Positions 22,624 to 54,944 of a DNA stretch of 64,000 nucleotides are shown here, piece after piece. This DNA comes from Azolla caroliniana. Lineage: Eukaryota; Plantae; Polypodiophyta. The notes beneath the pieces are model-generated. The model did no database searches, had not been told where the DNA came from, and was given only the letters and a program-made list of their open reading frames with translations. The first letter of the stretch is position 1; each line of letters begins with the position of its first letter. Location of the stretch: positions 3,286,001 to 3,350,000 of the forward strand of contig JBHGNT010000011.1 of assembly GCA_043228905.1 (NCBI GenBank). The letters run 5' to 3'. The position numbers and the translations under genes were made by a program.

Positions 22624-22943
22624 TTGAACCCCCGCCGCTTGTTCTCGTAATGTTAATATAGTAGCCTCGAGTTGATGAACCCGTTGTGATAGCTCCTCAT
22701 ATTGATGAGCTTTCTTTGTACTCACTTGTTGTAGATCCCTGAGTAGCCTTTGATTTTCTTGCTCTAATTCCACAAACTTAGTCGTGAGCATGTCGAGCTC
22801 GGAAAGGACACACATATACTGTTGCTTGTTGACGGACTCCATAATTGAGGGGGAAAAAGAAACAAGGAAAAAGAAGAAAGCTTGCTAGGGTTATTGGAAA
22901 AGGAAAAAGAAAGAATTCGGTTCAAACTGTCGTGACTCGTGAG

Positions 22944-23009
<66 letters not shown>

Positions 23010-26000
23010 CTTGAAATGGAAATGAGATTATATTATGAGGAAACAAGATTACAAAGAGTAGGTTAAGGGCTAAAGACTGGCGTTGAATCGAATGAGTTGT
23101 GATGAATGAATGGACACTTATTTATAGATCCTTATGGAGTATTCTAGAATGTTCTAGAATATTTTAGATATTTATGATAATAAATATAATCATCAAATAT
23201 TCAAGGATGTTCTAGAATAATCTAGAATGTTCTAGAATATTCTAAATATCTCGTAATAACTAAAAATAAAATTATTATAATTACACATCATATATGTTAT
23301 TACAATGGTTAAGGGTTCAACATATAGACCAAGAAGTTGTGGGTTTGATTCCTGGTTAATGTATATCTTCATGACATTATCCCCCCTTTTTGATGTTGAG
23401 TTGTACGAGTCAGAGGACAAGAGTTCAGACTTGGTTTATGGGGATATTGGTTTTGAAATGCAACAACCATGTCGGAGGCATTAGCAAGATGCTCGACAGG
23501 CTCCCATGTTCGATCATTAGGTGTATAACCTAAGCAATCAACCAAATAATATGGTTTGTTGCGGATGATCTTGGAGTCGAGAATGGCAACAACCTCATAT
23601 TCAGAGCCATTGGAAACTTTGAGTGGAGGTGGGGGAGGTGTAAGACGACCCAAAATAGAGCTTGTTGTGTAGGGCTCCGAAAGTGAAACATGGAAGACCG
23701 GGTCAAGACGCATATGAGGAGGAAGATCAAGACGAAATGTCACATCATTGATCTTACCAGAGATCACATATGGGCCGAAATGTTGATAATCCAATTTGTA
23801 GCAAGGTTGGGTGATTTTGATGCTACCTTGTAAGAGCCATACATGATCGCCTACTTGAAATGTAGCCGATGAATCACGCCGATGACTATCAACAATCTTC
23901 TTTTGAGTGTTTTGGGCATCACATAAATGATGCAAAAGTATATGATGAAGTTCTTGGAGTCGGGTGAGCCGATCTTCAACAGCCGGGTTTTTCGGGAGTT
24001 CGGGATGTTCAAGCATCATCCAACGAGGATGGTACCTAATGTTCGCAAAAAATGGGGAATATCTAGTAGAAGAATGTTTGGAGTTGTTGTAACCAAATTC
24101 CGCCAAATGAAATAGATCCACCGAATCATCGTGTTGATAGTTGACAAAACAATGTAGATATTGTTCAACCGTTTGGTTGGTGCGCTCACTCTGCCCATTA
24201 GTCTCTGGATGGTAGCCGGAAGAGAGTTTACAAGAAGCATGTAAGAGTTTGAACATGTGCCGCCAAAATTTCGAGATGAATTGGGGACCCCGATCACTGA
24301 TAATATCATATGGAAGACAATGATGGCAAAACACCTCCCGCGTGAGTAAATCGGTTGTCTCTTGACTAGTAATGGTCTTCATGCATGGAACGAAATGCGC
24401 CATCTTTGTAAAACGATCGACTACCGTGAGAATAGAATCAAATCCCTTGGAAGGTGGAAGATCCATAATAAAGTCCAAGGAAATAGATTTCCATGGGCTC
24501 TCGGGAATAGGCATTGGCTGTAATAAGCCATATGGATGATGTTGAGGCTTTTTTGATCGACAACATGTATCGCAACTAGGAACATAATCTGTAACAAAAT
24601 CGCGAACCCGTGCCCACCAATATCGGCGAGAAATCAACTCAAAAGTCTTGTGGATGCCGAAATGTCCAGCCCATGGTGTGTCATGACATTGTTGCACGAC
24701 TTTGAGTCGAGAAGGACCATGAGGCACATACAAGAGAGTTTGTCGAAAAAGTAAACCATCATGCTAGCTAAACTAGGTGTAGTCTAGACGAGGATTTTGA
24801 GATTGGGAGCTGGAAGCACAATTTGGGATAATATGGCTCAAAACTCTTGGGTGAATCATCGGTCTCAATATGCTCCTGAATGGAATCAAGAAGCCTTGAA
24901 TCTCTTGGTGTGTTGATAGTATGCATTGCCATTAGTCATAAACGATCAAGACCTAAGAGGATTTGCTTTTGACTTTCAAATGTGGCCTCTCTTGGTTGAA
25001 GTTCCATATATGAACGTTGAGATAAAGCATCTGCTTTGTTGCATCCCAGGGAGATATAGAATTACGAAATCAAAACGAGTTAAGAATTGCGCCTAACAAG
25101 CTTGTCGACGATTCAAGACTTGAGCACTTTGGAAGTATGTTAGATTTTTCTGATCATTGTAGACAATAATCAGTTGAGAAGAACCCTCCAAAAAATGATG
25201 CCATTGTTGAAAAGAATCCACAATGGCAAGAAGCTCTTTGTTGTGAATCTCATAGTTGATTTCTGCAGCTTCAAATTCCCGTGAGTGAAAAACCATTGGG
25301 TGCAGTTCGCCATCTTCGCCAATTTGGGATAGTACGCTTTCGAGTGCGAAATCAGATGCATCAGCTTCAAGTATAAACCGCCTGATTGGATCGACATGCA
25401 TTAAAATTGGTGCAAATGTAAACGCTTGCGTTAAACTCTGAAATGCAGAGTTCACATCTATACTCCATACAATTGATCAATTCGTTTGCGTCAGTTGAGT
25501 GAGGAGCAATACAATCTTTGAATAATCTTTGATGAACTTGCGATAAAATTTTGCGAACCCCAAAAAACATTGTACATCTCGCACAGACTGTGGTGTTTGC
25601 CAATCCAAAATTGTTTGAACCTTTGATGGATCCATAGAGATGTCATTTGAAGAGACTATGTACCCCAAAAATTCCACTTGACATTGGTTGAAACTACACT
25701 TCTCCAAAAAACTTGGCGAACGTGTATCTCATCCTCCTCTTGAGTTTTTGAGTAGAGATCAAGATATCATCCAAGTAAACTATGATGAAGATATCGAGGA
25801 ATTCTTGAAGAATGTCATTCGCCATATGTTGGAAAAAACTTATTCGTTTAACACATCCTTTAATTGGCTCAAGACATCAAATCTATTCTCATGGCATGGG
25901 CTATTAGGCTTAGTACTTAAGTTATTAGAAGTGATAGTAGAACTTGAGGTAGGGTTGTCATGTGCACTTACTTGGTAAACCTGATGTCTGGGTTTATGTG

Positions 26001-34551: not shown

Positions 34552-35053
34552 TGTCGAGACTCGTGGGTAGAAGATAGAGTGAGAGCGAGAGTGAGAGCGA
34601 AAGAGAGAGGGTGTGTGTGTGTGTGCGTGAGAGAGAGAGAGAGAGTGAGAGAGATAAGACTTGAAATAGAAATGAGATTATATTATGATGAAACAAGATT
34701 ACAATGAGTAGGCTAAAGGCTAAAGACTGGTGTTGAATCGAATGAGTTGAAACGAATGTATAGACAGTTATTTATAGGTCCTTATGGAGTAATCTAGAAT
34801 GTTCTAGAATATTTTAGATTTTATGATAAGAAATATAATCATGAAATATTAAAGGATGTTCTAGAATCATCTAGAATGTTCTAGAATAATCTAGAATGTT
34901 CTAGAATGTTCTAGAATATTCTAATATCTTGTAATAACACATAATTATTATAATCACACAACATATATGTTATTACAATGGTTAAGGGTTCAACACATAG
35001 ACCAAGAAGTCGTGGGTTCGATTCTTGATAACCAAAATGTTGTCTTCATGACA
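34552..35053 (-). mobile_element. Solo LTR of a C-related family inserted in the integrase of I
   Basis: TG...CA ends, perfect TSD CCATC (34547-34551/35054-35058), collinear with the C LTRs including the (TCTAGAATGT)n repeats. Confidence 0.93.
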
Positions 35054-36861: not shown

Positions 36862-39800
36862 TGTCAGGAATAGTACTAAAGCAGAGATGGAATTAGTACT
36901 AAAGAACAACAATACTATTAGTACTAAGAGGACAGGACTGCGTAAGATTCCCGAGAGAGGAAGTGAGAAGAGGAGAGAGAGAGATAGCGAGAATGAGAGA
37001 GAGAGAGAGAGATGATGACAACAACTAATATATTATGTGAAAAGATAAGTACAAGCGGCTAAGAGGCTTAAGACTGGCGTTGAACCTATTTGGTTCAAAA
37101 CAATGCCTTGTGCCTCCTTTTATAGTGTTTTTAGGAATAATCCTGAAGCTTCTAGAATGTTCCAGAGAGATCTGGAATATACATCAATTTTCTATGATAA
37201 AGCATAAATGAAAATAATATCCTACAAAATACAATTCATCGTCTAATGGTAAGAGCTCGACCCATGTAGCATAAGGTCATGGGTTTGAGTCTTGCCATAT
37301 CATGACACTATCTTCCCCTTAAAGACGACGAGTGGAACAAGTCAGCGCTAATTGCGGATCGGGTTTGTCCGGATACTTTCGGTGGAAATCAGCAAGAAGA
37401 TCTTGTGCATTGGCAACATGCTCGACGGGTTCCCAAGTACGTTCGCTCGGACTATAACCGAGCCAATCGACCAAGAAATAAAGTTTGTTGCGAACAAGTT
37501 TGGAATCGAGGATGGCAGCAACTTCATACTCTGGGCCGGCGTCCAACTCCAGCGGGGGCGGCGGTGGTGTCACACGATCGGGAATGGTGTTTGCTTTATA
37601 AGGTTCAAGAAGAGAACAATGGAAAACCGGATGTATCTGAAGCTGCGGAGGGAGATCAAGGCGGAAGGTGACATCATTAATCTTCCCTGTAATACGGAAA
37701 GGACCGAGTCGTCGATAATCCAACTTGTCGCACGATCGAGTAGTCTTGATGTGACGACGTAAGAGCCATACTCGATCTCCGATGGCAAAAGAGGAGGGAA
37801 TCCGATGACGATCCGCATAAGTCTTCTGTGTGTGTTGAGCATGACGAAGGTGAGTAGAGAGATCCATCTGGATCTTGCGTAGCCTCTCCAAATGATCCTC
37901 GGCACGAGGGTTGGTAGGTAGCTCCGGAGTGTCGATCACCGACTAGCGAGGATGGAAACCGGTATAAGCGAAAAATGGGGAGACCTGAGTCGAGGAGTGA
38001 ATAGCATTATTATATGCAAACTCCGCAAAGTGGAGAATCTCGGCCCAATCGTCCTGTTGATAACTCAAGAAACACCGGAGATATTGCTCCAGCGTTTGGT
38101 TTGTTCGTTCTGCCTGTCCGTCGGTTTGAGGATGGTAGCCGGAGGAGAGGTTGCAGGAGACCTTGAGCATCTTGAAGAGATGCTGCCAAAATTTGGAGAC
38201 AAATTGCGGGCCTCGGTCACTGATAATACTGTCTGGGAGGCCATGATGCCGAAATACCTCACGCATAACAAGAGCGGCGGTTTCCTCGCTAGTGATGGCT
38301 TTAGTACATGGCACAAAATGTGCCATCTTCGTATATCGATCGACCACGGTTAGGATAGCATCGAACCCCTTCGAGACTGGCAGATTTGTGATAAAATCAA
38401 GACAAATAGACTGCCATGGCTTACTTGGAATCGGTAAAGGTTCCAACAAGCCATATGGATGGTGTCGTGGCATCTTTGCTCAGCAGCAAGCATCACAGGT
38501 CCGAACGTAGTCGTCGACAAAACGTCGCATGTGGGGCCACCAAAAAGATCGTTGCACTAGCTCTAACGTCTTAGTACTACCGAAATGTCCCGCCGTATGG
38601 GTGTCGTGACAATGTTGGACGATTTGAAGGCGACAGGAGCAATCGGGGACATATACGCGCTTTTTAAAGAATAACAAACCATCATGATATTCAAATTGTT
38701 GGTAGTCAATACCTGGTTGTTGAGACTGAGAGCAGGATGCCCGAGAAGTATCAATGTGCGCCAGGATGTCTTGAGCAAAACTATCCGTCTTCAAGGTTGC
38801 ACGTATGTCATCGGTAATCCGTGAATCCATCGGGGTGTGAAAAATCCGCGTCGTGTGCAATCGTGTTGGTCCCAAGATTACTTGCTTTTGATTATCAAAT
38901 GTTGCGTCACCAGGACGAGGTGCAAGATATGAACGCCGTGATAGTGCATCTGCTTTTCCTGGCTGCTTCCCCTGTCGATATGTGATTTTGAAGTCGAAAC
39001 GGGTGAGGAATTGCGCCCATCGAGCTTGCCGTCGATTTAGTACGCGAGCGTTCTGAAAATAAGCAAGATTTTTATGATCGCTAAAGACAATGACCTGATG
39101 TGGAGAGCCCTCTAAGAAATGTCGCCATTGTACAAATGAATCCACGATGGCTAATAACTCCTTGTCATGTATTTCGTAGTTGATTTCTGCGACATCGAAT
39201 TTGCACGAATGGAAAGCCACCGGATGCAACTCTTCTTTATCGCCTTGTTGAGAAAGGATGCTACCAAGGGAGAAATCTGATGCGTCGGCCTCCATGATGA
39301 ATGGTTTGCTTGTATCCACGTGAGCTAGAATCGGTGCTGATGTAAAGGCTTTCTTAAGATGCCGAAAAGCCATATTTGCTTCTATGGACCAAAGAAATGC
39401 TTGGCCCTTCTTCATAAGTTGTGTGAGAGGTAAAATAATCTTCGAGTAATCCTGTATAAACTTACGGTAGAAGTTAGCAAAACCTAGAAAACATTGTACA
39501 TCTCGTATCGACCGTGGAATTTGCCACTCTAGTACAGTTTGGATTTTAGCTGGATCCATGGCGATGCCCTTTGAGGAGATGACGTAGCCTAGAAATTCCA
39601 CTTGCTTGCAGTCAAAGCTACATTTTTCTAGCTTGGCATAAAGACCATTCTCGCGGAGTTGCTTTAGTACTAATAGTACATGAGAATCGTGCTCTTCCTG
39701 GGTCTTCAAATAAATCAACAGATCATCTAGATAAATGATCAAACAGATATCCAAGAGGTCTCTGAATATATCATTTGCCATGTGTTGGAAGACTGCGGGT

Positions 39801-42560
39801 GCATTGGTTAGGCCAAACGGCATAACAGTATACTCGAAATGCCCATACCGCGTGCGAAAGGCGGTCTTCCACTCATCTCCCGGTCGGATCCGCACGAGAT
39901 TATACGCTCCTCGTAGGTCGATTTTAGTAAAAAACTTGGCACCATTAACTCGCTCTAAAAGACTTGATATAAGAGGAAGTGCATACCTATTCCGGATGGT
40001 GACTTTATTCAATCGCGGTAATCAACGACAAGACGAAGTGAGCCATCTTTCTTCTTGACAAAGAAGATGGGTGCACCGGCCGGAGATTTCGAATGACGGA
40101 TGAACCCGCTTGCCAAGTTCTCCTCTATGTAGGCTCGAAGGACTTCTAACTCGGTGGGTGACAAGTTGTAAATTGGTCCCCATGGTGGCCCGGTTCCTGG
40201 TTGTAAATCAATGGGACAGTCATAGGGACGGTGATGAGGAAGGGTACCGGCCTTTACCTTGTCAAATACATCGGCATAAGGATGATATTTTGCCAGAAGT
40301 TGTACTGAGGAGTCCTTCTTAATAGTGCTGGAAGGATGTACTGATATGGCAAATAGGAACATTGCCTCCTTGGGTCCTTCTTCGCGTAGTTGATGGAGTG
40401 AAATGGTCGAAACTCGGTGAGTTGATTCTTGGGGTGGTCGATATCGGACTTCTCTTGTTCTCCAATCTATGGCTGGATTATGTAATTCAAGCCAAGGTAA
40501 TCCTAGGACAATGGGATGCTTTGGACTACTAATTATATTAAATGATATTATACACACAAAACTACCTAGGACAACTTGAATGGGTTCTGATTCTTCTACA
40601 ATATTCCCGGAAGCAATGGGACGACCATCAATGACCACTACAGATGCGGGACAAGGAAGTTTTCTTAAGGATATCTGAGAAGCTTGTGCAAAATTTCGAT
40701 CCATGAAACAGGAATTAGCTCCGGAATCTAAAAGTGCTAGGATGGGTACTAGGGGAGTACTTTTAGTACTAACAATGACTTGGGCTAGGAACACATTGCT
40801 AACTTGCTTGGAAGGAATGGAACCACTAATGGGCTGTACAGATCTAAGGCTGCTGTCCAACCAAACGGCTCCTATTTTGGCTGGACTCAATCGTTTAACT
40901 CTTCATCTAATTGACTAAGGATTTCAAATTTATTTGAGATACTTGGGCTATTAGTACTATGAATACTATCTGACACTCTATTAGTACTATTAATACTATT
41001 AGACACTCCGAAGGGAAGAATTGACTCGGGTTTAGTACAGGCGACGATTTGATTTACCAGTCTTCTTGGCCTATGGGGACAATTGATGGCGATATGTCCT
41101 AGTCCACCACAATAAAGACATAATCGATTGGCACGTCGTCGTTGCTTTTCTTCTTCCGATAACAGGCCGTGTCGACGCATGGTATCGATCTCCATCGGTG
41201 TCGAAGTATTTGCTTGAGGTATGTCTCGTGCAAACGGTTTAGCCGCGATTGCGGCGTAAATGGGCTCCGGCCTAGAGCGTGGTATCTATAATTGACGTTT
41301 TGAACGTCGTTCGAAAATGCGGTTGTCACATCGAACTGCTCGACTGATTGCCTTCGTAAGAGACTTTGGTTCTTCGGGGAAAGTTAGAAGTAGATCTTTG
41401 ACATCGTTTCGCAAGCCATAGCAAAACTGCTCCATTAGTGCTTGATCATCCTAGGGTATATCTGAAGCAAGTAGGCGGAAATCCGCCGCGTAGGCAGAGG
41501 CTGGACGACCGCCTTGACGCAATCGCCGGATCTTGTTGATCGCTGTCCTGATGCTGTTGGTGTCTCCAAAGCAGGCTTTAAACTCACCAATAAAATCTTC
41601 AAAGTTATTAAGCAAGGGCGAATCTTTTTCTAGAAGCGGAGCGAACCATGCCAAGGCTGAGCCGCTAAGTAGTGTGCCTATTAGGCCGACTCGAGATGCA
41701 TCAATGGGATATCGGGAAGGATGCATCTGGATGACTAAGCGTACCTGATTAAGGAATCCCCGGAATTGCGAACGCGTTCCATCAAATTTCACAGGAAGTC
41801 CAATCTTGGGCTCTTTATGAAATCCTTGGGGACTTGATCCTTGTTGTTGCAACGCTGCTTCGAGTTGTTGTACCTGTAACACTAACTCCCCATGTTGTTG
41901 TTGCGTTTGTTGTTTTTCTAGAGCGATTTGTTGCAGATCCCCTATTAGCCGTTGGTTTTCTTGTTCCAAGGCAACAAACTTTTCTTTTAGGCATTGTAGC
42001 TCGGAGAAAACGGATTGGTATTCCTGGGCGCTAACAGTAGCCATAGTATAGGGAAAAGGGTAGGAGGATGAGGGAGAGTGACAAGTAGGCTGGAGGAAAA
42101 ATTGGTTCAAACTGTCAGGAATAGTACTAAAGCAGAGATGGAATTAGTACTAAAGAACAACAGTACTATTAGTACTAAGAGGACGGGACTGCGTAAGATT
42201 CTCGAGAGAGGAAGTGAGAAGAGGAGAGAGAGAGATAGCGAGAATGAGAGAGAGAGAGAGAGAGATGATGACAACAACTAATATATTATGTGAAAAGATA
42301 AGTACAAGCGGCTAAGAGGCTTAAGACTGGCGTTGAACCAATTTGGTTCAAAACAATGCCTTGTGCCTCCCTTTATAGTGTTTTAAGGAATAATCCTGAA
42401 GCTTCTAGAATGTTCCAGAGAGATCTGGAATATACATCAATTTTCTATGATAAAACATAAATGAAAATAATATCTTACAAAATACAATTCATAATCTAAT
42501 GGTAAGAGCTCGACCCATGTAGCAGAAGGTCATGAGTTCGAGTCTTGCCATATCATAACA
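36862..42560 (-). mobile_element. Element D: near-intact Gypsy chromovirus (Tcn1-like), apparently the youngest insertion
   Basis: LTRs 36862-37307 and 42113-42560 (roughly 97% identical by eye); perfect TSD CTCCG; PPT 37308-37323. Gag 40887-42044, pol 37319-40890 (LLDSGA protease, YLDD RT, RNase H, integrase, chromodomain) with only a few stops or frameshifts. Confidence 0.97.
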
Positions 42561-45429
42561 CTCCGTTGATTTCCTCTCCGGGGCCGAGGACTCTACATGC
42601 CCTGAGTCGTTGTTCTACCTGCTTCTTCTCCCGGCCAACGACGTCGGTTATTGTACAATTTCCATTGTCGGAGAACCAAAACTTCCTACCTATGTTACAG
42701 GTTCTTCTGCCAACTACACACGTGTGGGGTTTTTCTGGAGTGTCCGGACTATCGCGGCCCCACGCCTTGATAGCCCTCTCTAAAAATCCCCTCAGCTTTT
42801 GCCGCCAAGGGTCTCTCGGTTTCGTTCATGGTTCGGTCATATCGTTAGAAACTGGACGGAGTGACGATGGTCCTGGCTCTTGACTCGCGCGTACGCCGAA
42901 TTGTTGTCCAGAACCTTAGTCTCCATTCGCGCCGCTGTGATGTACGATTCCCCGAGTATCACCGGATGCGAGGATGTCTCCTACACAAAGAAGTGTTGAT
43001 CGATCTTGACATCACCGATTTTCACTCATACGTTCGGGCACGCTCCGTGTAGCTCCTCCGTGGCGCGTGTCGCCGCTCGTATTTTCCACCCGTGCTTGGT
43101 GTTGATCGGCCACATGCCCTTCTTGTAAAAGTCCATGGATATCAAGTTGATTTCCGAACTGTGGTCCACCAACACCACCACCGGCGCATGGACATCTCCG
43201 ATCTTAACGGGGTTCTCCGTAGTGGCTCTGGCCCAATGTAGCCTCGAATAGTGGCTTTCCGCCCGAACCGGGTCTCATACCGTTGCAAGGGTCCAATCCC
43301 TCTAGTCTTTCCCGCATGCTTCTCTTCCACCAGAACCTCGTAGTTCTGGCACGCGGCTTCTACGAAGCCCGTCTTTTCTTCGACCGGGTCACTCCACCTG
43401 GTTACCTCCCGGACTCGTCTTTCTGCGCGGTCCGCTTCCTCTTTCCTCAATCGTACGCCGGCGAGGCCTTCTAGCATCAACGGCCAGAACACGGAGTCCT
43501 TCGTCTTCCGGACTTCGTCGATCCCGACCCGGATTCCTACCGACGCCGAGTAGTGGACGGTCTCCGCGTGACGAGCCGCCGCTTCTTGCATCAGCGCTTC
43601 ATTCCCCCTCGTCCAACATTTAGTTCCAGGGCCCTCCTGGTTTCGCTAACGTGTACACGCCCGTTCCACAGGTACGCCACGGTAGACCTTATCGCTTCGG
43701 CGAAATCCCCAGGCGTGGCCGACCGCGTCGCACCACAAGCACCGATGCTCGGCCAGAGGCCTTCGGTCGCGGGCTTGTTCGCCATTGTCCCTTCGTGCCT
43801 GTGCAATCTGGAGGTCCCTCACCATCTGAGTCAGCTTCTCCAGAGCCGCACCTTTGGACGGGCCCTTGACCACGCTGGTTGAAGTCGAACCGGTCTCAAG
43901 CGAATCTCGGGTTTCCTCCCTTCGCACCGGTGGGGGTACCTCGAGCTTCCTTGCCGCAACAGAGCCTGCCCCCGCCGAGCCTTTATCGACCCAATCTCGT
44001 TGTTTGTCGAAACGGACGCAGACTCTCTTCACCATGGCCCAGTCGGCCGTCAGCCCATCGTCGGTCTCCAGCAGGAGGCCCACTTGCTCCCGGTCCCTAA
44101 CGTCCACCGATTTAACAAACAATAGGACACGACTTGTGTCCAGTACGGTCCGGTCCAGCGCCGAAAGACGTGCGAAGCGTTCTTCAAACTCCAGGAGGAG
44201 CACCAATGCGTTTCTCCCCTTTTCGGGGGTCTCCACCCATTCCATGAAGTCCCGCTTCGATACCCGAAGCGCATCATCTAGCTCGTATTTCTCAAGGAGC
44301 CGACCTTCAAATTCTTCCCAGGTCTGGCTCTCAGCCCGTACCTGGAGCACCTCCGCATGGATGCTCGGCATTGCCACCCGAGGGAATCCGGCCAGTCGCC
44401 TGTCCTCCGGAATGTTCCTCATCATCATTTCGGCTCGGTAGGCCGCCAAATAGCTCATGGCGTCCTTTCCGCCAAACCGGCCTATCGTGCCGATGATCGC
44501 TTCAACGGCCCTATCGAGGGTGCCTGTGCCTTTGCGCACACTCACTATCCGATCCACAACTGAAGCCATGACTTCAGCAAGCTCCAATCCCCTCATCTTC
44601 CTATTCCTCTACCGCCTTTCACGTCGGGTTCACCAAATATGTCACGTTATTACGCGTGTGCGTGTACAACGAGGCAGGACCGCAGGGGTCTTGGTCTGAG
44701 GGACAAGAGAGCCGGAGGGGAGCAAGAGAGACAACGGCCGTGCTGACAATGGTCGTGCTTCGCACACGCACAAATACACAGAAACCGCAATTGATTGAGA
44801 CAAGATGAACGTGTGTAGGTGTATATATATATACCAGATAAAAGGGGTTACAACCAGCGGGCCGGTGAGTGACGAGCTCTGATGCCTACATGCACACATG
44901 CACACAAACGCGAGAGGGAGACTCAGCCGGAAGCACTCGGGCATTCCGCGGAGCAGAGTCTGCCTCCCGAAAACCTGCATAGATCAAATACAAAGAAAGA
45001 CAAAGAAGAAGGCCTTGGTCCCAGTTCGTCAGCACTTCGTCCTCGACAAAAGAGATCCCCATTACGATTCCTCTCCCTCTCTTTTATAGCCCAAGGAGGG
45101 AGGCCGTCACAACCCGTTACATCATCTTTATTCTTTGTCCTTTCGGACAGAGATACGCCTCGATTTTCTACCTAACAAATGCGTGCTACCTAGGATATTC
45201 ACATCAACCGACTTGTACCTAAATGTATATATTACAAAAAAACTTGTGCCTACATATAAGGGTCAGTTCGCGCTCATTATTCTCCGATTCCGCCTAGGGA
45301 CAATTTTCTCCACGACAACGGACTCCATAATTGAAGGGGAAAAAGAAAGAAGGAAAAAGAAGAAAGCTTGCTAGGGTTATTGGAAAAGGAAAAAGAAAGA
45401 ATTCGGTTCAAACTGTCGTGTCTCGTGAG

Positions 45430-45497
<68 letters not shown>

Positions 45498-48400
45498 CTT
45501 GAAATGGAAATGAGATTATATTTTGAGGAAACAAGATTACAAAGAGTAGACTAATGGCTAAAGACTGGTGTTGAACTGAATGAATTGTGATGAATGAATG
45601 GACACTTATTTATAGATCCTTATGGAATATTCTAGAATGTTCTAGAATATTTTAGATATTTATGATAATAAATATAATAATCAAATATTCAAGGATGTTC
45701 TAGAATAATATAGAATGTTCTAGAATATTCTAAATATCTTGTAATAACTAAAAATAAAATTATTATAATTACACATCATATATGTTATTACAATGGTTAA
45801 GGGTTCAACACATAGACCAAGAAATTGTGGGTTTGATTCCTGGTTAATGTATGTCTTCATGACAACCGTCTGGTCCAGAGCCAAGGAAAATACATTTCCC
45901 GGACCTTGGTGCAAGCTTTTGGCGATCGTCTTTTGGCACGAGAGCATAAGCCTCGTAGCCGAAAATCCTTAGTTTCTCATAATCCGGTTTTCTGACGATC
46001 CATAATTCTTGAGGAATATGATGTCCCAGAGGTCTACTCGGCGACATATTGATTATGTGTATTGCTGTAAGTAGAGCCTCTACCCAGAAGCCATCTGACA
46101 ATCTGGAGTGGTGGATCATGGACACTATTCATTCTTGAATTGTTCGATTCATCTGTTCAACGATTCTATTTTGCTCTGGACTATGAGGTTTCGTATATTC
46201 ACGCATGATGCTGCGCAATCGGAAAAATTTGGTGAATTCCTCATATCTGAACTCTTACTCGTTATCAATCCGAAGAAATTTTAGTTTTCCACCATGGCGA
46301 GCCATTCGGAAAAGATCGAGAATTCACGATCTTTGGTTTTGGCCGGATAGGCCCACACATTCCGAGTTGAATCGTCGATGAAGTTGACGAAATACAAGGC
46401 ACCACCAAGTGATTGATCTAGCATCGGGCCGCAAACATTTGAATGGACCAAGTCGAGCGAACTCGACTCTCTTGGTGTTGTCGTGGGGTGTGAAGCGGCT
46501 ATTTGTTTACCGTATTAGCAATGCTCAGAAAACTAATTATCGGAGAAGGAGAATTTGGGAATATATCTGGCTCTAATGAATGTGTGACGTTGGCTTTGAT
46601 GAGGTGTCCGAGTCGACCAAGCCATAATGATGACACGGGAATATCAACTAGAAACAAGTCACCCTCTCTAAGTGTGACATATAACGGCTACAATGAATGT
46701 ACTTTCGGACCTCGGGCAAGCAAGAGGTTTCCCCTTTGGTGTGTCCACCCTCCTGATGAGAAGCCAACATGGACGCCATCTTCACTGAGTTGTCCGACCG
46801 AGGTCAACGGTCTTGAGAGCTTAGGCACGTGTCAGACATTATGTAGCACCAATGTGCCGATTCTGATTATAACACAATGTTGCGAATTTCCGATTTAGAC
46901 TGAGTTGGAATGCTGGGCCGAATATTGCCAAAATTGTGATCTATGAGGAGTCACATGGTAGGACACGCCCGAATCCAAGAGGCAAGTGCTTGACTCTTCA
47001 GTCGTAAGCACAACTTCTTATTTGACTGAGTGTTCTATGAACATAATGTTTGCGTCGTCCCTCAATACTTCGGTTGATGAGCCGATGTAATTGACCTATT
47101 CTTGTCGGCTGCCCTTGTGATCAGCTCTCGGAGCTTTATCATTCCTGTCTTTGAGGGCGTGGCAATCAACCTTGATATGTCTGAGTTTCTTGCAATAGTT
47201 GCAAGTTCGATTATCCAGGGACTTGCTCCGGGTTCGCTGATTTTTCGGTAATCAAGAAGAACCTTTCCCACGACTGTTCGGTCGTTCGTTCGAACCTTGT
47301 ACTATGTAGGCATCTTTGGCCGAATCGTTTGCAAACAATTTTCTCTGAGTTGATTTAGTGAAGATTGAGCTTGTGACTTTGGAGTACTTTACTATAGTAG
47401 TCGATGCATTGCACACAGTTGCGACGAAAGTTTCCCATGAAGGGGGGAGACTACTCATTAGCAACATTGCTTTTAGTTTGTCTTCTATTGTCGTCCCTTG
47501 AGCTGAAATTTGGGAGCTTAGGCTTTCGTACTTGTTGAGGTGTGCCTAGAACAAGTCGAATTATTTCATCTGACGATTGTGGAGGTGCCGGATCAGGTAT
47601 ATCTTTGTTGCGGCGACCTTTTTTTAATAAGTATCCGAGAGTGTCTTCCATAATTGGAAGGTCGTTCAACACGATTACACTATGAAGTACACTGACTCCA
47701 ACAAGTGCATCTGAAGGGTGGTGCGGACGATTTGGTCCAACTTCGTCCACTCATTTAGCCTATATCCTTCTAGAGCATTTTCAGTCTTGATTGGGTTGAT
47801 CTGACCCTCGACTATCAGATAGTCTTACATCTGATCCTTCCAGAAGTTGAAGTTCGATCCGTCGAACTTCCTTAGACTCATCTCTAATGAGCTCGATGTT
47901 GATGTCATCTATGTCGGCTTGTACTTCAAGAGTGATTTAGTCTAGGTGTTTCTCCTCAAGAAGAAGGATCTTGTAGAGAATTGTTGGCCGAAACATTTTA
48001 GTCCACTGAAATATTAGATTATGTTCCAACAAAAAAATCAACAGAAGGTTCTTCAAAGGTTTCTAGAGGGGTGTTGATAGAGACAGGATGACAACCTGCA
48101 ATAGAATCAAAGACGCCAATCTCTGATACCATATGTTGGAGACTAAGACCGTCAATTTGGGGAAACAAGGATCAACAACTTTGTGAAGTACAACAAGATG
48201 AACAAAACACACGACCAATCGACAAAGTGAGAGGGGGAGAGAGAGACTCAGAGGCACACAATATATAACTTGTATTATTCAAAATGGCAACCGTAACAAT
48301 GAACAACCATAACAACTAGGTTACAAGAGTCAGTTTAAATACCAATTGACTTGGGCAACTACCCTTTCCAATATTTATATAAATATTTACAATCGTACAT

Positions 48401-51500: not shown

Positions 51501-54052
51501 TTGATGCCAATGACACATGGGACCTAGTTGGCCCTCCCTGACACTGTAAACAAATCGGATGTAAGTGGGTGTACAACGTAAAGTACAATGCCGACGGTTC
51601 GGTTAACCGGTACAAGGCCCGGTTAGTGGCGAAGGGATACCTACAAACCCACGTAATCGACTATGACGAGACCTTCGCTCCAGTAGCAAAGATGATGACG
51701 GTTCGTGTGGTGCTGGCGGTTGCAGCAGCAAGGGGGTGGCATTTTCACTAGATGGACGTGAAAAATGCATTTCTTCAAAGCAATCTTGAAGAAAAGGTCT
51801 TTATGATCCAACCCCCCGGTTTCCAGTCGGAGATGAACAAGTCGGCGATATGCGGGCTGAAGAAGTCCCTTTATGGCCTGAAGCAAGCCCCCCGAGCTTG
51901 GAATGCGAAGATCACGCACCGGTTGCGTAAGATGGGGTTTGTGGCCTCCAAGTCTGACTCTTCGTTGTTCATCCGGCAAGGTCCAGAAGGTTCGGTTTGC
52001 ATCTTGCTGTATGTTGATGATCTAGTCATCACCAGACTCGGACTCGATGAAATCAGCCAAGTCAAGTCCCAGTTGTTGGATGCATTTGAGATGAAGGACC
52101 TGGGGGACCTTCACTATTTCCTTGGGATCGGGGTGATCCGAACCCCCGACGGCATATTGCTCTCACAAAGACACTATGTGTTGAATATGTTGTACAAGTT
52201 TGGCATGACGGAATGCCGACTGATCTCCACACCCCTAGACCGGAACCAGAAGCTCTGTCCCGACTCCGGACTGGCCTGCGATGAGAAGCGGTTCCGAAAA
52301 ATCGTCGGAAGCCTTATATATTTGACAATCACTCGACCCGACATCAGTTATCCGGTTGGCATGATCAGCCAATATATGCATAAGCCGACAGTGGAGCACC
52401 GTCTGTGCGCGCATCGAATTTTGCGATACGTGGGTGGCACAAAGGACCGGGGACTGTTATACCGGCATGGTATAACCGAAGAGCTAGTCGGCTACACCGA
52501 TGCCGACTGGTTTGGCGATGCATCAGATCGCCGATCCATCTTCGGCTATATGTTTTCCCTTGGTAGCGCGACTATTGCGTGGAGCAGCAAAAAGCAGCCA
52601 ACAATGGCCCTTTCGAGCACTAAGGCTGAATAACGGGGCGCTACCGTTGCCACCTTTGAAGCCATTTGGCTTCGGCGACTGCTGCAAGACCTGCGGATCG
52701 AGGTGCCGACCCCGATCCTAATCTACTGCAACAACATAAGCAACATGTAGCTCGCCAAGAACCCCGTATTCCATGCTCACACAAAGCACATTGAAGTGCA
52801 CTACCATTTCGTGCGTGAGCGTGTCCTGAGCAGTGAAGTCGAACTTCGGTATGTTCAAGTTGCCGACATCTTCAGCAAACCGCTCGGATCGGACAAGTTG
52901 CAACACTTCACTGAAATGCTTGGTGTTCAGTATCTCGACATGCCACACTTGAGGGGGAGAAGGGGCAAAGACACTGGAATGGGCAAAGGCAAAGAAGATG
53001 TTGATTGCGCCGGTGAGGGAAGAACCGACAAAGGGAGAGACAAGAAGAAGAAAGGAGTCGAGTCGACAAAGGAAGTTGACACATCCGAACAAATTGGAAC
53101 AAGCGGCAGCGGCAGCAGAGTCAAGAAGGACATAGCCGACCGGAAGTAGAAGGCCAAGACCCAGACATGGTCCAATGTGGTGAAGGGCCTAGAACCGGAA
53201 GACGAATCGGGAGCGACCGATTCGAACAAGAGCTGGAACGAATCGGAGACAGCCGATTCGGTTCAACAAACGGATTTGGAAGAACTAGATCAATTCAAGG
53301 CCAAGAGGATGAGAAGGTAGCGAAAGTCGACGCCAACACGAAGGAATCGGCGAATCAGCAAGCGTCGAAGTCACAGCAGCGAGGGAGCTGAATTGGGCCT
53401 ATTGAGTAGACAAGCCGACCGAGGAGGTCGAGGTGCGCACAATCAGAAGGGTCGCGGCAACGGGACTGAAGCGGACGAGGAGCGCGAGCGAGGCGGAGCG
53501 ACGCTAGAAGGAGCCGGGTGGAAGGACCAGCTGCCATGGAGATTGACACTACGATCCGACCTCAAGTTGAGCTTGAGGGGGAGTGTTGAGCGACAAGCTC
53601 AACCGGATCTGGATTGGCTGAATAAGCTTGAGCCGGATCGGCATCCGGAAGGATGAACCGAGCCGACGAGCAAGTGAGCTAGGGAGCCGGTTACCCGGAT
53701 CCAATAGTAACCGGAAGCATAGCAACAGCCTAGACTACTAGGTAGTTAATGTCTCGTAATTAGTGTCAGACACTCGTGTGAGCATTGAAGTACACCGTAC
53801 TTCTGTCAGTCCTCTTAGGACTTGTATAAATAGTGTTGTTGAGCACGTTGTATGTACACATAGTATTTTACAGAGTTGATGATAATAGATTTAAGTTGTT
53901 CTGCTCTTGCATTGTCGGGGTAGTTGTGGTTCATACGACGAAGTCACAACAGGGACTAAGGTTAAGGGGAGTTGAAGAAACTTAACTTTTAATAAGGCTT
54001 GTATGGTGATGATAGAATGGTTAAGGATAGTAAGAAGAAGAGTTACGAGTAA

Positions 54053-54092
<40 letters not shown>

Positions 54093-54944
54093 GAGCATAG
54101 ATAAAAGATAGAGACAATGTATGATTCAAGAAAGAAGATTGAGACAAAGTATGATTCTAGAAAGAAGATTGAGACAAAGTATGATTCAAGGAACAAGAGT
54201 ATATGATATAAACATGATGTATATTAAAAATATAATATTTTACCAACTTTACAATCCTTGATCGCAAGATGAATCTTTTCAATACCGACCCTTGATTTGA
54301 ACCCACGACTTCCACTTTTAAACGCAAGTCTCTTCACCGAATACGATATCTTCAATACTTGCTTAAATTCTTTTCTCCCACTTTCTCTTGATCCCCTCTT
54401 ATTTCCTTGCCCCTCTTTATATAATTGTTGCCATGCATATGGTAATGTATGCAAGCATGGCATGCATGCAATGCATGAGTTACATGTAATGCATGATCGC
54501 CATTTGGTGTACATGCATTGCATGTGATGCATGATGGCTATGTATGAAAATAGATATGGGATAAGTATAATGATGAAAATGCATTTTACAATAATTAACC
54601 TAGCTCAGTGGTGCATGCTTTGTGTTTGGTATACAAGGTTGAGAGCTCAAGTCTCTCTATTTTACTCAATACAATATATACCTTCATTCTTATATCATGA
54701 AACACATTTTTTTACAAACTTTTACAAATAAATAGCCTAGCCTAGTGGTATTTACATTGTATTTCGTATATAAGGATGTGGGTTCAAGTCTCTCAAATAT
54801 TATTAAATACAATATTTAAGCTCATTTTTATATCGTGAAATACATTCTTCACGACAGCGTACCTTCTGTGTGTTAATCTCTCTCTCTCCCTGTTGCTATC
54901 CGGCTAAGCCGGTTGTCTAAAGCTTCCGCACCTTCGTTTTTACA
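48588..54944 (+). mobile_element. Element G: Copia of family A lacking its 5' LTR and PBS
   Basis: Gag starts MDRGMARSLPVEKLDRSNY at about 48662; the polyprotein is collinear with A but has many stops. PPT 53572-53583; 3' LTR 53584-54944 (interrupted by a solo LTR). Confidence 0.93.
53913..54856. mobile_element. Solo LTR (944 bp) inside the 3' LTR of G
   Basis: TGTCG...CGACA inverted ends and a 4-bp TSD GCAT/GCGT. Contains (GT)n(GA)n, three 30-bp repeats (about 54105-54195) and three tRNA-like modules. Confidence 0.75.

Follow-up and report, generated by a model that had tools for sequence, protein, structure and literature searches.

What are promoter boxes of the tRNA-gene type doing in the LTR of a plant retrotransposon? 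The question is raised by one locus in the window, a 64,000-nucleotide stretch of the Azolla caroliniana genome that is a nest of LTR retrotransposons, where a first-pass annotation had placed three tRNA-like modules in a single LTR and had seen in them a candidate for an undescribed system. Our preferred answer, to which we give a probability of roughly 0.45, is that the modules are tRNA-derived boxes without a tRNA body, inherited with the LTR, which likely bind TFIIIC and TFIIIB and would serve as chromatin barriers bracketing the element's Pol II promoter.

The solo LTR, its parents and its modules

All six A- and B-box motifs were found where the annotation had put them, inside a repeat with TG...CA ends that interrupts another LTR. 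The features of the locus, in window coordinates, are these:

53584..53912, resuming at 54857, plus strand: host LTR that received the insertion, probably Copia by its RNase H motifs
53909..53912, no strand: left 4-bp target duplication (TSD), GCAT, with one CpG-type change relative to the right copy
53913..54856, minus strand: solo LTR of 944 bp, Phygy-like Ty3/Gypsy; 29 further copies align over its full length and share its termini
54294..54348, minus strand: module 1, A box 54348-54337, B box 54303-54294, spacing 45, 21.1 bits
54415..54423, minus strand: TATA box, putatively of the element's Pol II promoter
54432..54533, no strand: CATGCA/TGCATG repeat block around GATCGCCATTTGGCGC, likely Pol II upstream elements
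54584..54856, plus strand: terminal ~136 bp of U3, duplicated in tandem; a relic of the LTR end is included
54601..54653, plus strand: module 2, A box 54601-54611, B box 54644-54653, spacing 43, 26.1 bits
54738..54790, plus strand: module 3, A box 54738-54748, B box 54781-54790, spacing 43, 35.0 bits
54857..54860, no strand: right 4-bp TSD, GCGT (NCGN)

The GCAT and GCGT flanks bear out the 4-bp TSD claimed for this LTR. Full-length parents, which the annotation had recommended finding, were sought in the 523-Mb assembly and proved to be coding gag-pol Gypsy elements of a Phygy-like kind, with LTR pairs (94.9-99.6% identical in four full-length copies of 6.6-7.5 kb) enclosing gag, a protease-like ORF and an RT-RH-INT frame. 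Orientation was read from the PPT, PBS and gag-pol of these copies; the PPT and PBS place the element on the minus strand of the window, so that 54856 is the U3 end (the 5' end of the LTR). The PBS, TGGTGAACCCGACGTGA, starts 4 nt past the LTR and presumably matches tRNA-Trp; its 4341 exact matches in the genome point to a very large and diverse Phygy-like population, while an exact 22-base U5 anchor of this family has 271. Three of the four full-length copies have an exact TSD and the remaining one carries a single change, and 34 of 40 host-side 4-bp flanks of the family have a central CG (NCGN). Pfam reads the pol of one copy (L034) in RT-RH-INT order with no chromodomain, and the nearest named homologues are proteins of the liverwort Riccia sorocarpa, at no more than 70% identity over RT-RH.

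The available part of the Phygy account gives a 4-bp NCGN TSD, a tRNA-Trp PBS in 81%, no chromodomain, a compact polyprotein and a length of 7.7-10 kb, and that part makes no mention of tRNA-like LTR content (Neumann 2019, PMC6317226). The present family shares the NCGN TSD, the RT-RH-INT order, the missing chromodomain and the compact polyprotein and is slightly shorter, at 7.4-7.5 kb; it fits Phygy on the features compared. Elsewhere in the genome, one locus (L216) contains a Phygy-like copy whose LTRs are 99.4% identical, and a tandem array (L035-L036, C14:15.51-15.53 Mb) holds three LTRs of the family with common internal parts, together with a related family's LTR that has recombined in.

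The modules were scored with a box matrix built from 54 tRNA genes of the same genome, which themselves score 25.5-44.3 bits on it (their own matrix, not cross-validated). Scores of 21.1-35.0 bits uphold the description of the modules as tRNA-type Pol III promoter cassettes, binding being a prediction; none of 1500 order-2 Markov copies of the LTR reached 20 bits, and the A+B pattern has 3392 genome matches against 0 for its reverse. The window copy is not the best of its kind: module 2 scores 30-36 bits in most other copies, and here the T54 of its B box, invariant elsewhere, is replaced by C, a substitution found in just 2 of 57 copies. Module 1 reaches 29.3 bits elsewhere, and its A box reads TAGCTCATTGGG, the canonical form, in 35 of the 57 copies, the window copy having the decayed form of a subfamily. 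Because the family alignment starts that A box at 54348 and not at 54346, the equal 43-nt spacing reported earlier holds for modules 2 and 3 and gives way to 45 for module 1. The ~137-bp tandem pair likewise stands, modules 2 and 3 lying in a 136/137-bp duplication with 103 of 138 aligned columns identical. ARAGORN called 0 tRNAs over the window, and the covariance-model scan that the annotation had suggested, run with Rfam on the region, returned no tRNA or 5S match; its sole hit was a 17-nt T-arm match to tmRNA, below cut-off.

Read in the direction of the element, the order is two outward modules in U3, the CATGCA-rich block, the TATA box and one inward module. Modules 2 and 3 are antisense to the element and are followed by T4 (54660-54663) and T5 (54825-54829), respectively; module 1 is sense, downstream of the TATA box that the family conserves, and is followed by T5 at 54230-54226. 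Since modules lie on both sides of the TATA block, they bracket the probable Pol II promoter. We take the GATCGCCATTTGGCGC block to combine putative RY-like (B3-factor) and E2F-like sites, of which the E2F-like site is exact in 38 of 57 copies; if these labels are right, the block would link expression to development or S phase. It is also retained among otherwise diverged Phygy-like LTRs (L074, L094, L209, L035).

Presence of the modules was gauged in 30 copies picked by the U5 anchor, which lies outside them. At least two modules (module 1 plus at least one in U3) are kept in 29 of the 30, all three in 22, and the sole exception has a deletion. The modules are thus a property of the LTR family and not stray single-copy SINE insertions. 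Of the 3392 A+B matches, the first 30 include 29 that can be aligned with known LTRs and one in a sequence that is probably an LTR. The extended B pattern, which is looser, has 12,078 genome matches against 20 for the control; among its first 30, LTRs account for 19, tRNA genes or their relics for 4 and a non-LTR repeat for 3-4, with 3 left unplaced. One further probable LTR (L144 / L217:5105) has a sense module upstream of its TATA box and no parent within 10 kb.

Constraint on the boxes and loss of the tRNA body

Constraint was read from 57 aligned copies, a variant being counted as shared when seen in at least 5 of them. Of the 39 core box columns, 2 have shared variants. The corresponding figures are 20 of 97 for the spacers (one-sided Fisher p=0.019), 213 of 905 for other LTR columns (p=0.003) and 34 of 211 for the rest of U3 (p=0.052, a weak contrast), with the caution that columns are not independent because subfamilies have variants in common. 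The two affected core columns are both among the 7 of the module-1 A box, which is decayed in one spreading subfamily (about 13 of 57 copies, the window copy included); the 18 of the B boxes and the 14 of the A boxes in modules 2 and 3 are free of shared variants. This scarcity relative to the spacers speaks for constraint on the boxes, on which the first-pass proposal depended. Rare changes per column are no lower in boxes (0.89-1.36) than elsewhere (0.74-1.03), a pattern that would fit selection before insertion and neutral decay afterwards.

Twenty-seven module types allow the same question to be put across families. Spacing from A to B stays at 42-45 throughout, the DNA upstream is 79% AT, and AGGT at tRNA positions 44-47 is retained with at most one change in 24 of the 27. 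Selection of the set with the box matrix makes cross-family conservation of the boxes partly circular; comparisons of AGGT, which lies outside the matrix, of stems and of terminators are free of this. Pairing in the acceptor stem (2.85 of 7) and the anticodon stem (2.26 of 5) equals that of shuffles, D-stem pairing exceeds it (2.78 vs 2.12), and T4 follows within 40 nt in only 12 types. A tRNA gene is ruled out, ARAGORN, Rfam and pairing against shuffles giving no cloverleaf with an acceptor stem, and a conserved fold or cloverleaf is unsupported, with stem pairing at shuffle level and no fold common to the types. Module RNA as a primer or decoy for the PBS was also considered and dropped, the longest match being 7 nt.

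Spread among lineages and possible origin

The annotation had set this LTR apart from those of two other families in the window, C and D. No module sequence is alignable between them, so far as that goes, but C and D turn out to have an outward A/B module of their own:

23298..23351, plus strand: U3 end of chromovirus LTR C, 22.0 bits, T56 in the B box
34971..35024, plus strand: solo LTR of family C, 26.2 bits
37239..37291, plus strand: 3' LTR of chromovirus D, 26.0 bits
42492..42544, plus strand: 5' LTR of chromovirus D, 29.7 bits
45786..45839, plus strand: second LTR of family C, 22.0 bits, T56

Gypsy LTRs hold all 8 window matches of at least 20 bits, C and D contributing 5, and the other Gypsy and Copia LTRs tested in the window have no modules. 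Families C and D carry the Chromo domain PF00385, and their pol is about 24% identical to that of the solo-LTR family. Chromoviruses have outward modules only, one at the U3 end, and among 30 anchored by chromodomain, 25 have such a module just inside the 3' LTR. The T at B-box C56 in both C-family LTRs (23342 and 45830) weighs against a binding role. In family D (LTR copies L117-L176), the CpG of the B box is intact in 17 of 18 copies against 14, 14 and 8 of 18 at three other sites; as a proxy for methylation this was set aside for too few copies and confounding by subfamilies. Decay of CpG in these copies is strand-biased, CpA far exceeding TpG on the sense strand (8:1, 8:2, 3:0 and 7:0). 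The chromovirus LTRs (22928-23377, 34552-35053, 36862-37309, 42113-42562 and 45414-45864) apparently have no tRNA PBS; Tcn1 chromoviruses self-prime, and the bases after the 5' LTR of C and D are, by eye, complementary to a stretch below the TATA box, as self-priming would require. The likeness to Tcn1 goes by the chromodomain.

Among Phygy-like elements the modules are patchy. Only 2 of 30 PBS-anchored 5' LTRs of the same genome carry them (L069, L074), further module-bearing LTRs occurring nested, and among 38 callable relatives in other assemblies 14 do, or up to 19 by a second matrix. The 19-24 that do without show that modules are dispensable for the lineage, which counts against a binding platform. 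The layout of two outward modules and one inward recurs in L074, whose gag is 36% identical, and in other assemblies at 62% and 65% pol identity (L241 and L289) as well as at 95%; some families have a sense module in U3, and orientation varies between families. Families with 36-40% gag identity, and with spacers that belong to different clusters, still have boxes and spacing in common. A gag tree of 29 rows (5 further gag matches under 100 aa dropped) places the three families that carry modules to the same side of a branch supported at 98/97. A wider pol tree of 43 rows (42 of 80 loci omitted as uncallable) scatters carriers, read by eye, over about 8 groups and so undoes the case for a single origin within Phygy-like elements; a count of changes on this tree set modules against the outgroup only and was left aside. 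Of the proposed repeated acquisition and amplification, the second half is borne out by the tandem duplication and by a different second module in L074; the first is not, since the patchiness would be compatible with repeated gain, with exchange of LTRs, or with an old presence followed by losses. Viral contigs yielded no Phygy-like relatives, and none of the 10 distant chromovirus-like loci found there has modules.

The modules probably originate from a tRNA or a SINE head. Two simple routes were discarded. A SINE inserted in an LTR copy is ruled out, modules being present in nearly all anchored copies with no body common to the non-LTR repeat; nor does that repeat qualify as a donor SINE, for it could not be aligned with any of the LTRs tested (best E 0.037). 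It is itself of interest as a dispersed ~210-bp unit of two tRNA-like A/B modules face to face, nearly always inside (AG)n microsatellites (L339-L357, for example C15:16552892-16553092, and L312, L319, L336; 40 scored of 1983 first-look candidates), whose convergent Pol III promoters could yield double-stranded RNA; one copy (L349) is found within the AG tract of an LTR of type D. The genome also has tandem clusters of tRNA-Lys(TTT), Ile(TAT) and Arg(TCT) with many variant copies (L037, L038, L044, L045, L054-L056).

Function and significance

A and B boxes are the DNA features needed by TFIIIC and TFIIIB. The boxes hold constant as the intervening DNA diverges and so probably draw in the host's tRNA-gene machinery, and it is the conservation of DNA-level features, without conservation of RNA shape and with variable direction, that favours a platform for factor binding. 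The A/B boxes would be retained among transposing lineages of the coding family, host TFIIIC and TFIIIB likely binding them on the DNA, and the bound modules would bar silencing and keep the LTR's Pol II promoter open or bounded, with genomic RNA probably still a Pol II transcript. The barrier step is by analogy with yeast and animals. Yeast TFIIIB and TFIIIC limit the spread of silencing and animal tRNA genes insulate; plant tDNA barrier activity is absent from the available part of the same account, which counts against the proposal (PMC9540200). The likeness to such barriers lies in intact A/B boxes with a seemingly irrelevant RNA product; they are host loci, whereas the present modules are mobile LTR cargo. 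Two RNA runs from the same species show zero cover of the modules and are uninformative.

Second in our ordering, and improbable, is that the modules are working Pol III genes whose short or antisense RNA matters, for example into the PPT/integrase end or flanking DNA. A boxes and spacing are conserved as well as B boxes, T4/T5 runs follow modules 2 and 3 in 51 of 57 family copies, D-stem pairing is above that of shuffles, and Pol III microRNAs of foamy-virus LTRs provide a precedent in the available part of PMC3993851. The module-2 T stem has changed on both sides (A:T in 14, G:C in 15 of 30), but this is one event; module 2 folds to a hairpin before a U run in L034 (z -1.95), but shuffled sequences fold as well as the window copies do (z -0.21, 1.28 and -1.44). 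No fold or terminator is common to the types, and family D lacks T4 inside the LTR after its module. Ranked next is the suggestion, also improbable, that the modules are passengers, relics of tRNA or SINE heads in U3 whose conservation reflects short history, ascertainment or an overlapping site for another protein. It draws on the fact that most Phygy-like families thrive without modules, the transmission of decayed boxes, the weak contrast with the rest of U3, and an abundant tRNA-like repeat of which one copy lies in an LTR. Against this, the LTRs tested bear no real resemblance to that repeat, and boxes and spacing have outlasted the divergence of families and occupy equal place and direction in two lineages.

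The remaining readings assign Pol III itself a part in the element's cycle. Modules acting as landing pads that draw Ty3-type integration to Pol III start sites seem very unlikely: the boxes are probably intact enough for factor binding, but A+B matches occur in 0 of 40 host flanks (300 nt) of the family, a small sample and not genome-wide, module spacing is undisturbed in the U5-anchored copies that retain modules, and target choice follows NCGN. Least credible is a Cassandra-like arrangement in which Pol III makes genomic RNA from module 1. That module is inside the LTR and in sense orientation, but its T5 run lies about 60 nt downstream, the element is coding and 7.5 kb long, and a conserved TATA box stands upstream. 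With most modules pointing away, and those of chromoviruses outward only, the T5 after module 1 argues against Pol III as the maker of genomic RNA.

Comparison with known systems shows that the phrase "undescribed system" was too strong, tRNA-derived LTR boxes being already known from Helenus TRIMs. In the available part of that description, Helenus (TRIMp3) elements are non-coding, 311-1263 bp long, with tRNA-derived LTR sequence conserved at TRGCY..YGG and GGTTC; a functional tRNA is held unlikely, SINE capture is proposed as origin, and the one module is read as the element's promoter (Kojima 2024, PMC10886601). Its only plant case is Selaginella, with a 5-bp TSD; Pol II promoters are what it expects of autonomous partners; and "not a few" Repbase LTRs are said to resemble tRNA, the non-TRIM ones being left undescribed, which lowers any claim of novelty here (PMC10886601). 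In the family described here the A and B boxes are tRNA-derived and in an LTR as well, but its members are gag-pol elements of 6.6-7.5 kb, beyond the non-coding TRIM limit of about 1.3 kb, and have a TATA box and as many as three modules, mostly antisense. Cassandra TRIMs, as far as the available sources describe them, likewise have an internal Pol III promoter within plant LTRs, of 5S rRNA type, in a non-autonomous element whose own RNA it drives (bioRxiv 2023.07.14.548913; PMC10886601); membership was rejected for want of a 5S match in the Rfam scans. Foamy viruses, in the part of PMC3993851 available, are closer in being autonomous with several A/B-box Pol III LTR units beside a Pol II promoter; those units make defined hairpin RNAs with terminators, whereas the modules here have tRNA-like spacing and no common fold or terminator. 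A literature search that did not extend to subscription journals or Repbase notes turned up no account of tRNA-type LTR boxes in autonomous plant elements; what we have not found described is such boxes in autonomous elements, facing outward and in several copies.

Known LTR Pol III promoters belong to small non-coding elements and replace the Pol II promoter, whereas the coding elements here retain a TATA box; coding carriers with a TATA box, mostly outward modules and two lineages suggest another role, or none. LTR modules may inflate tRNA counts in some plant genomes, although ARAGORN calls none of the modules; more than 7500 predicted tRNA genes are cited for Azolla filiculoides in a review (PMC13578239). 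It is a tentative idea, more doubtful than the platform itself, that two distant autonomous Ty3/Gypsy lineages in seed-free plants each co-opted tRNA-gene promoters as portable insulators and so spread thousands of TFIIIC sites, the potential pool being up to about 12,000 extended B-box matches with most of the sample in LTRs. On that view the elements would have made a device against silencing out of the host's Pol III apparatus. If the modules are barriers, they would be a way for transposons to resist silencing, and tDNA/TFIIIC insulation could be tested directly in plants, the thousands of copies that are naturally intact or mutated serving as controls.
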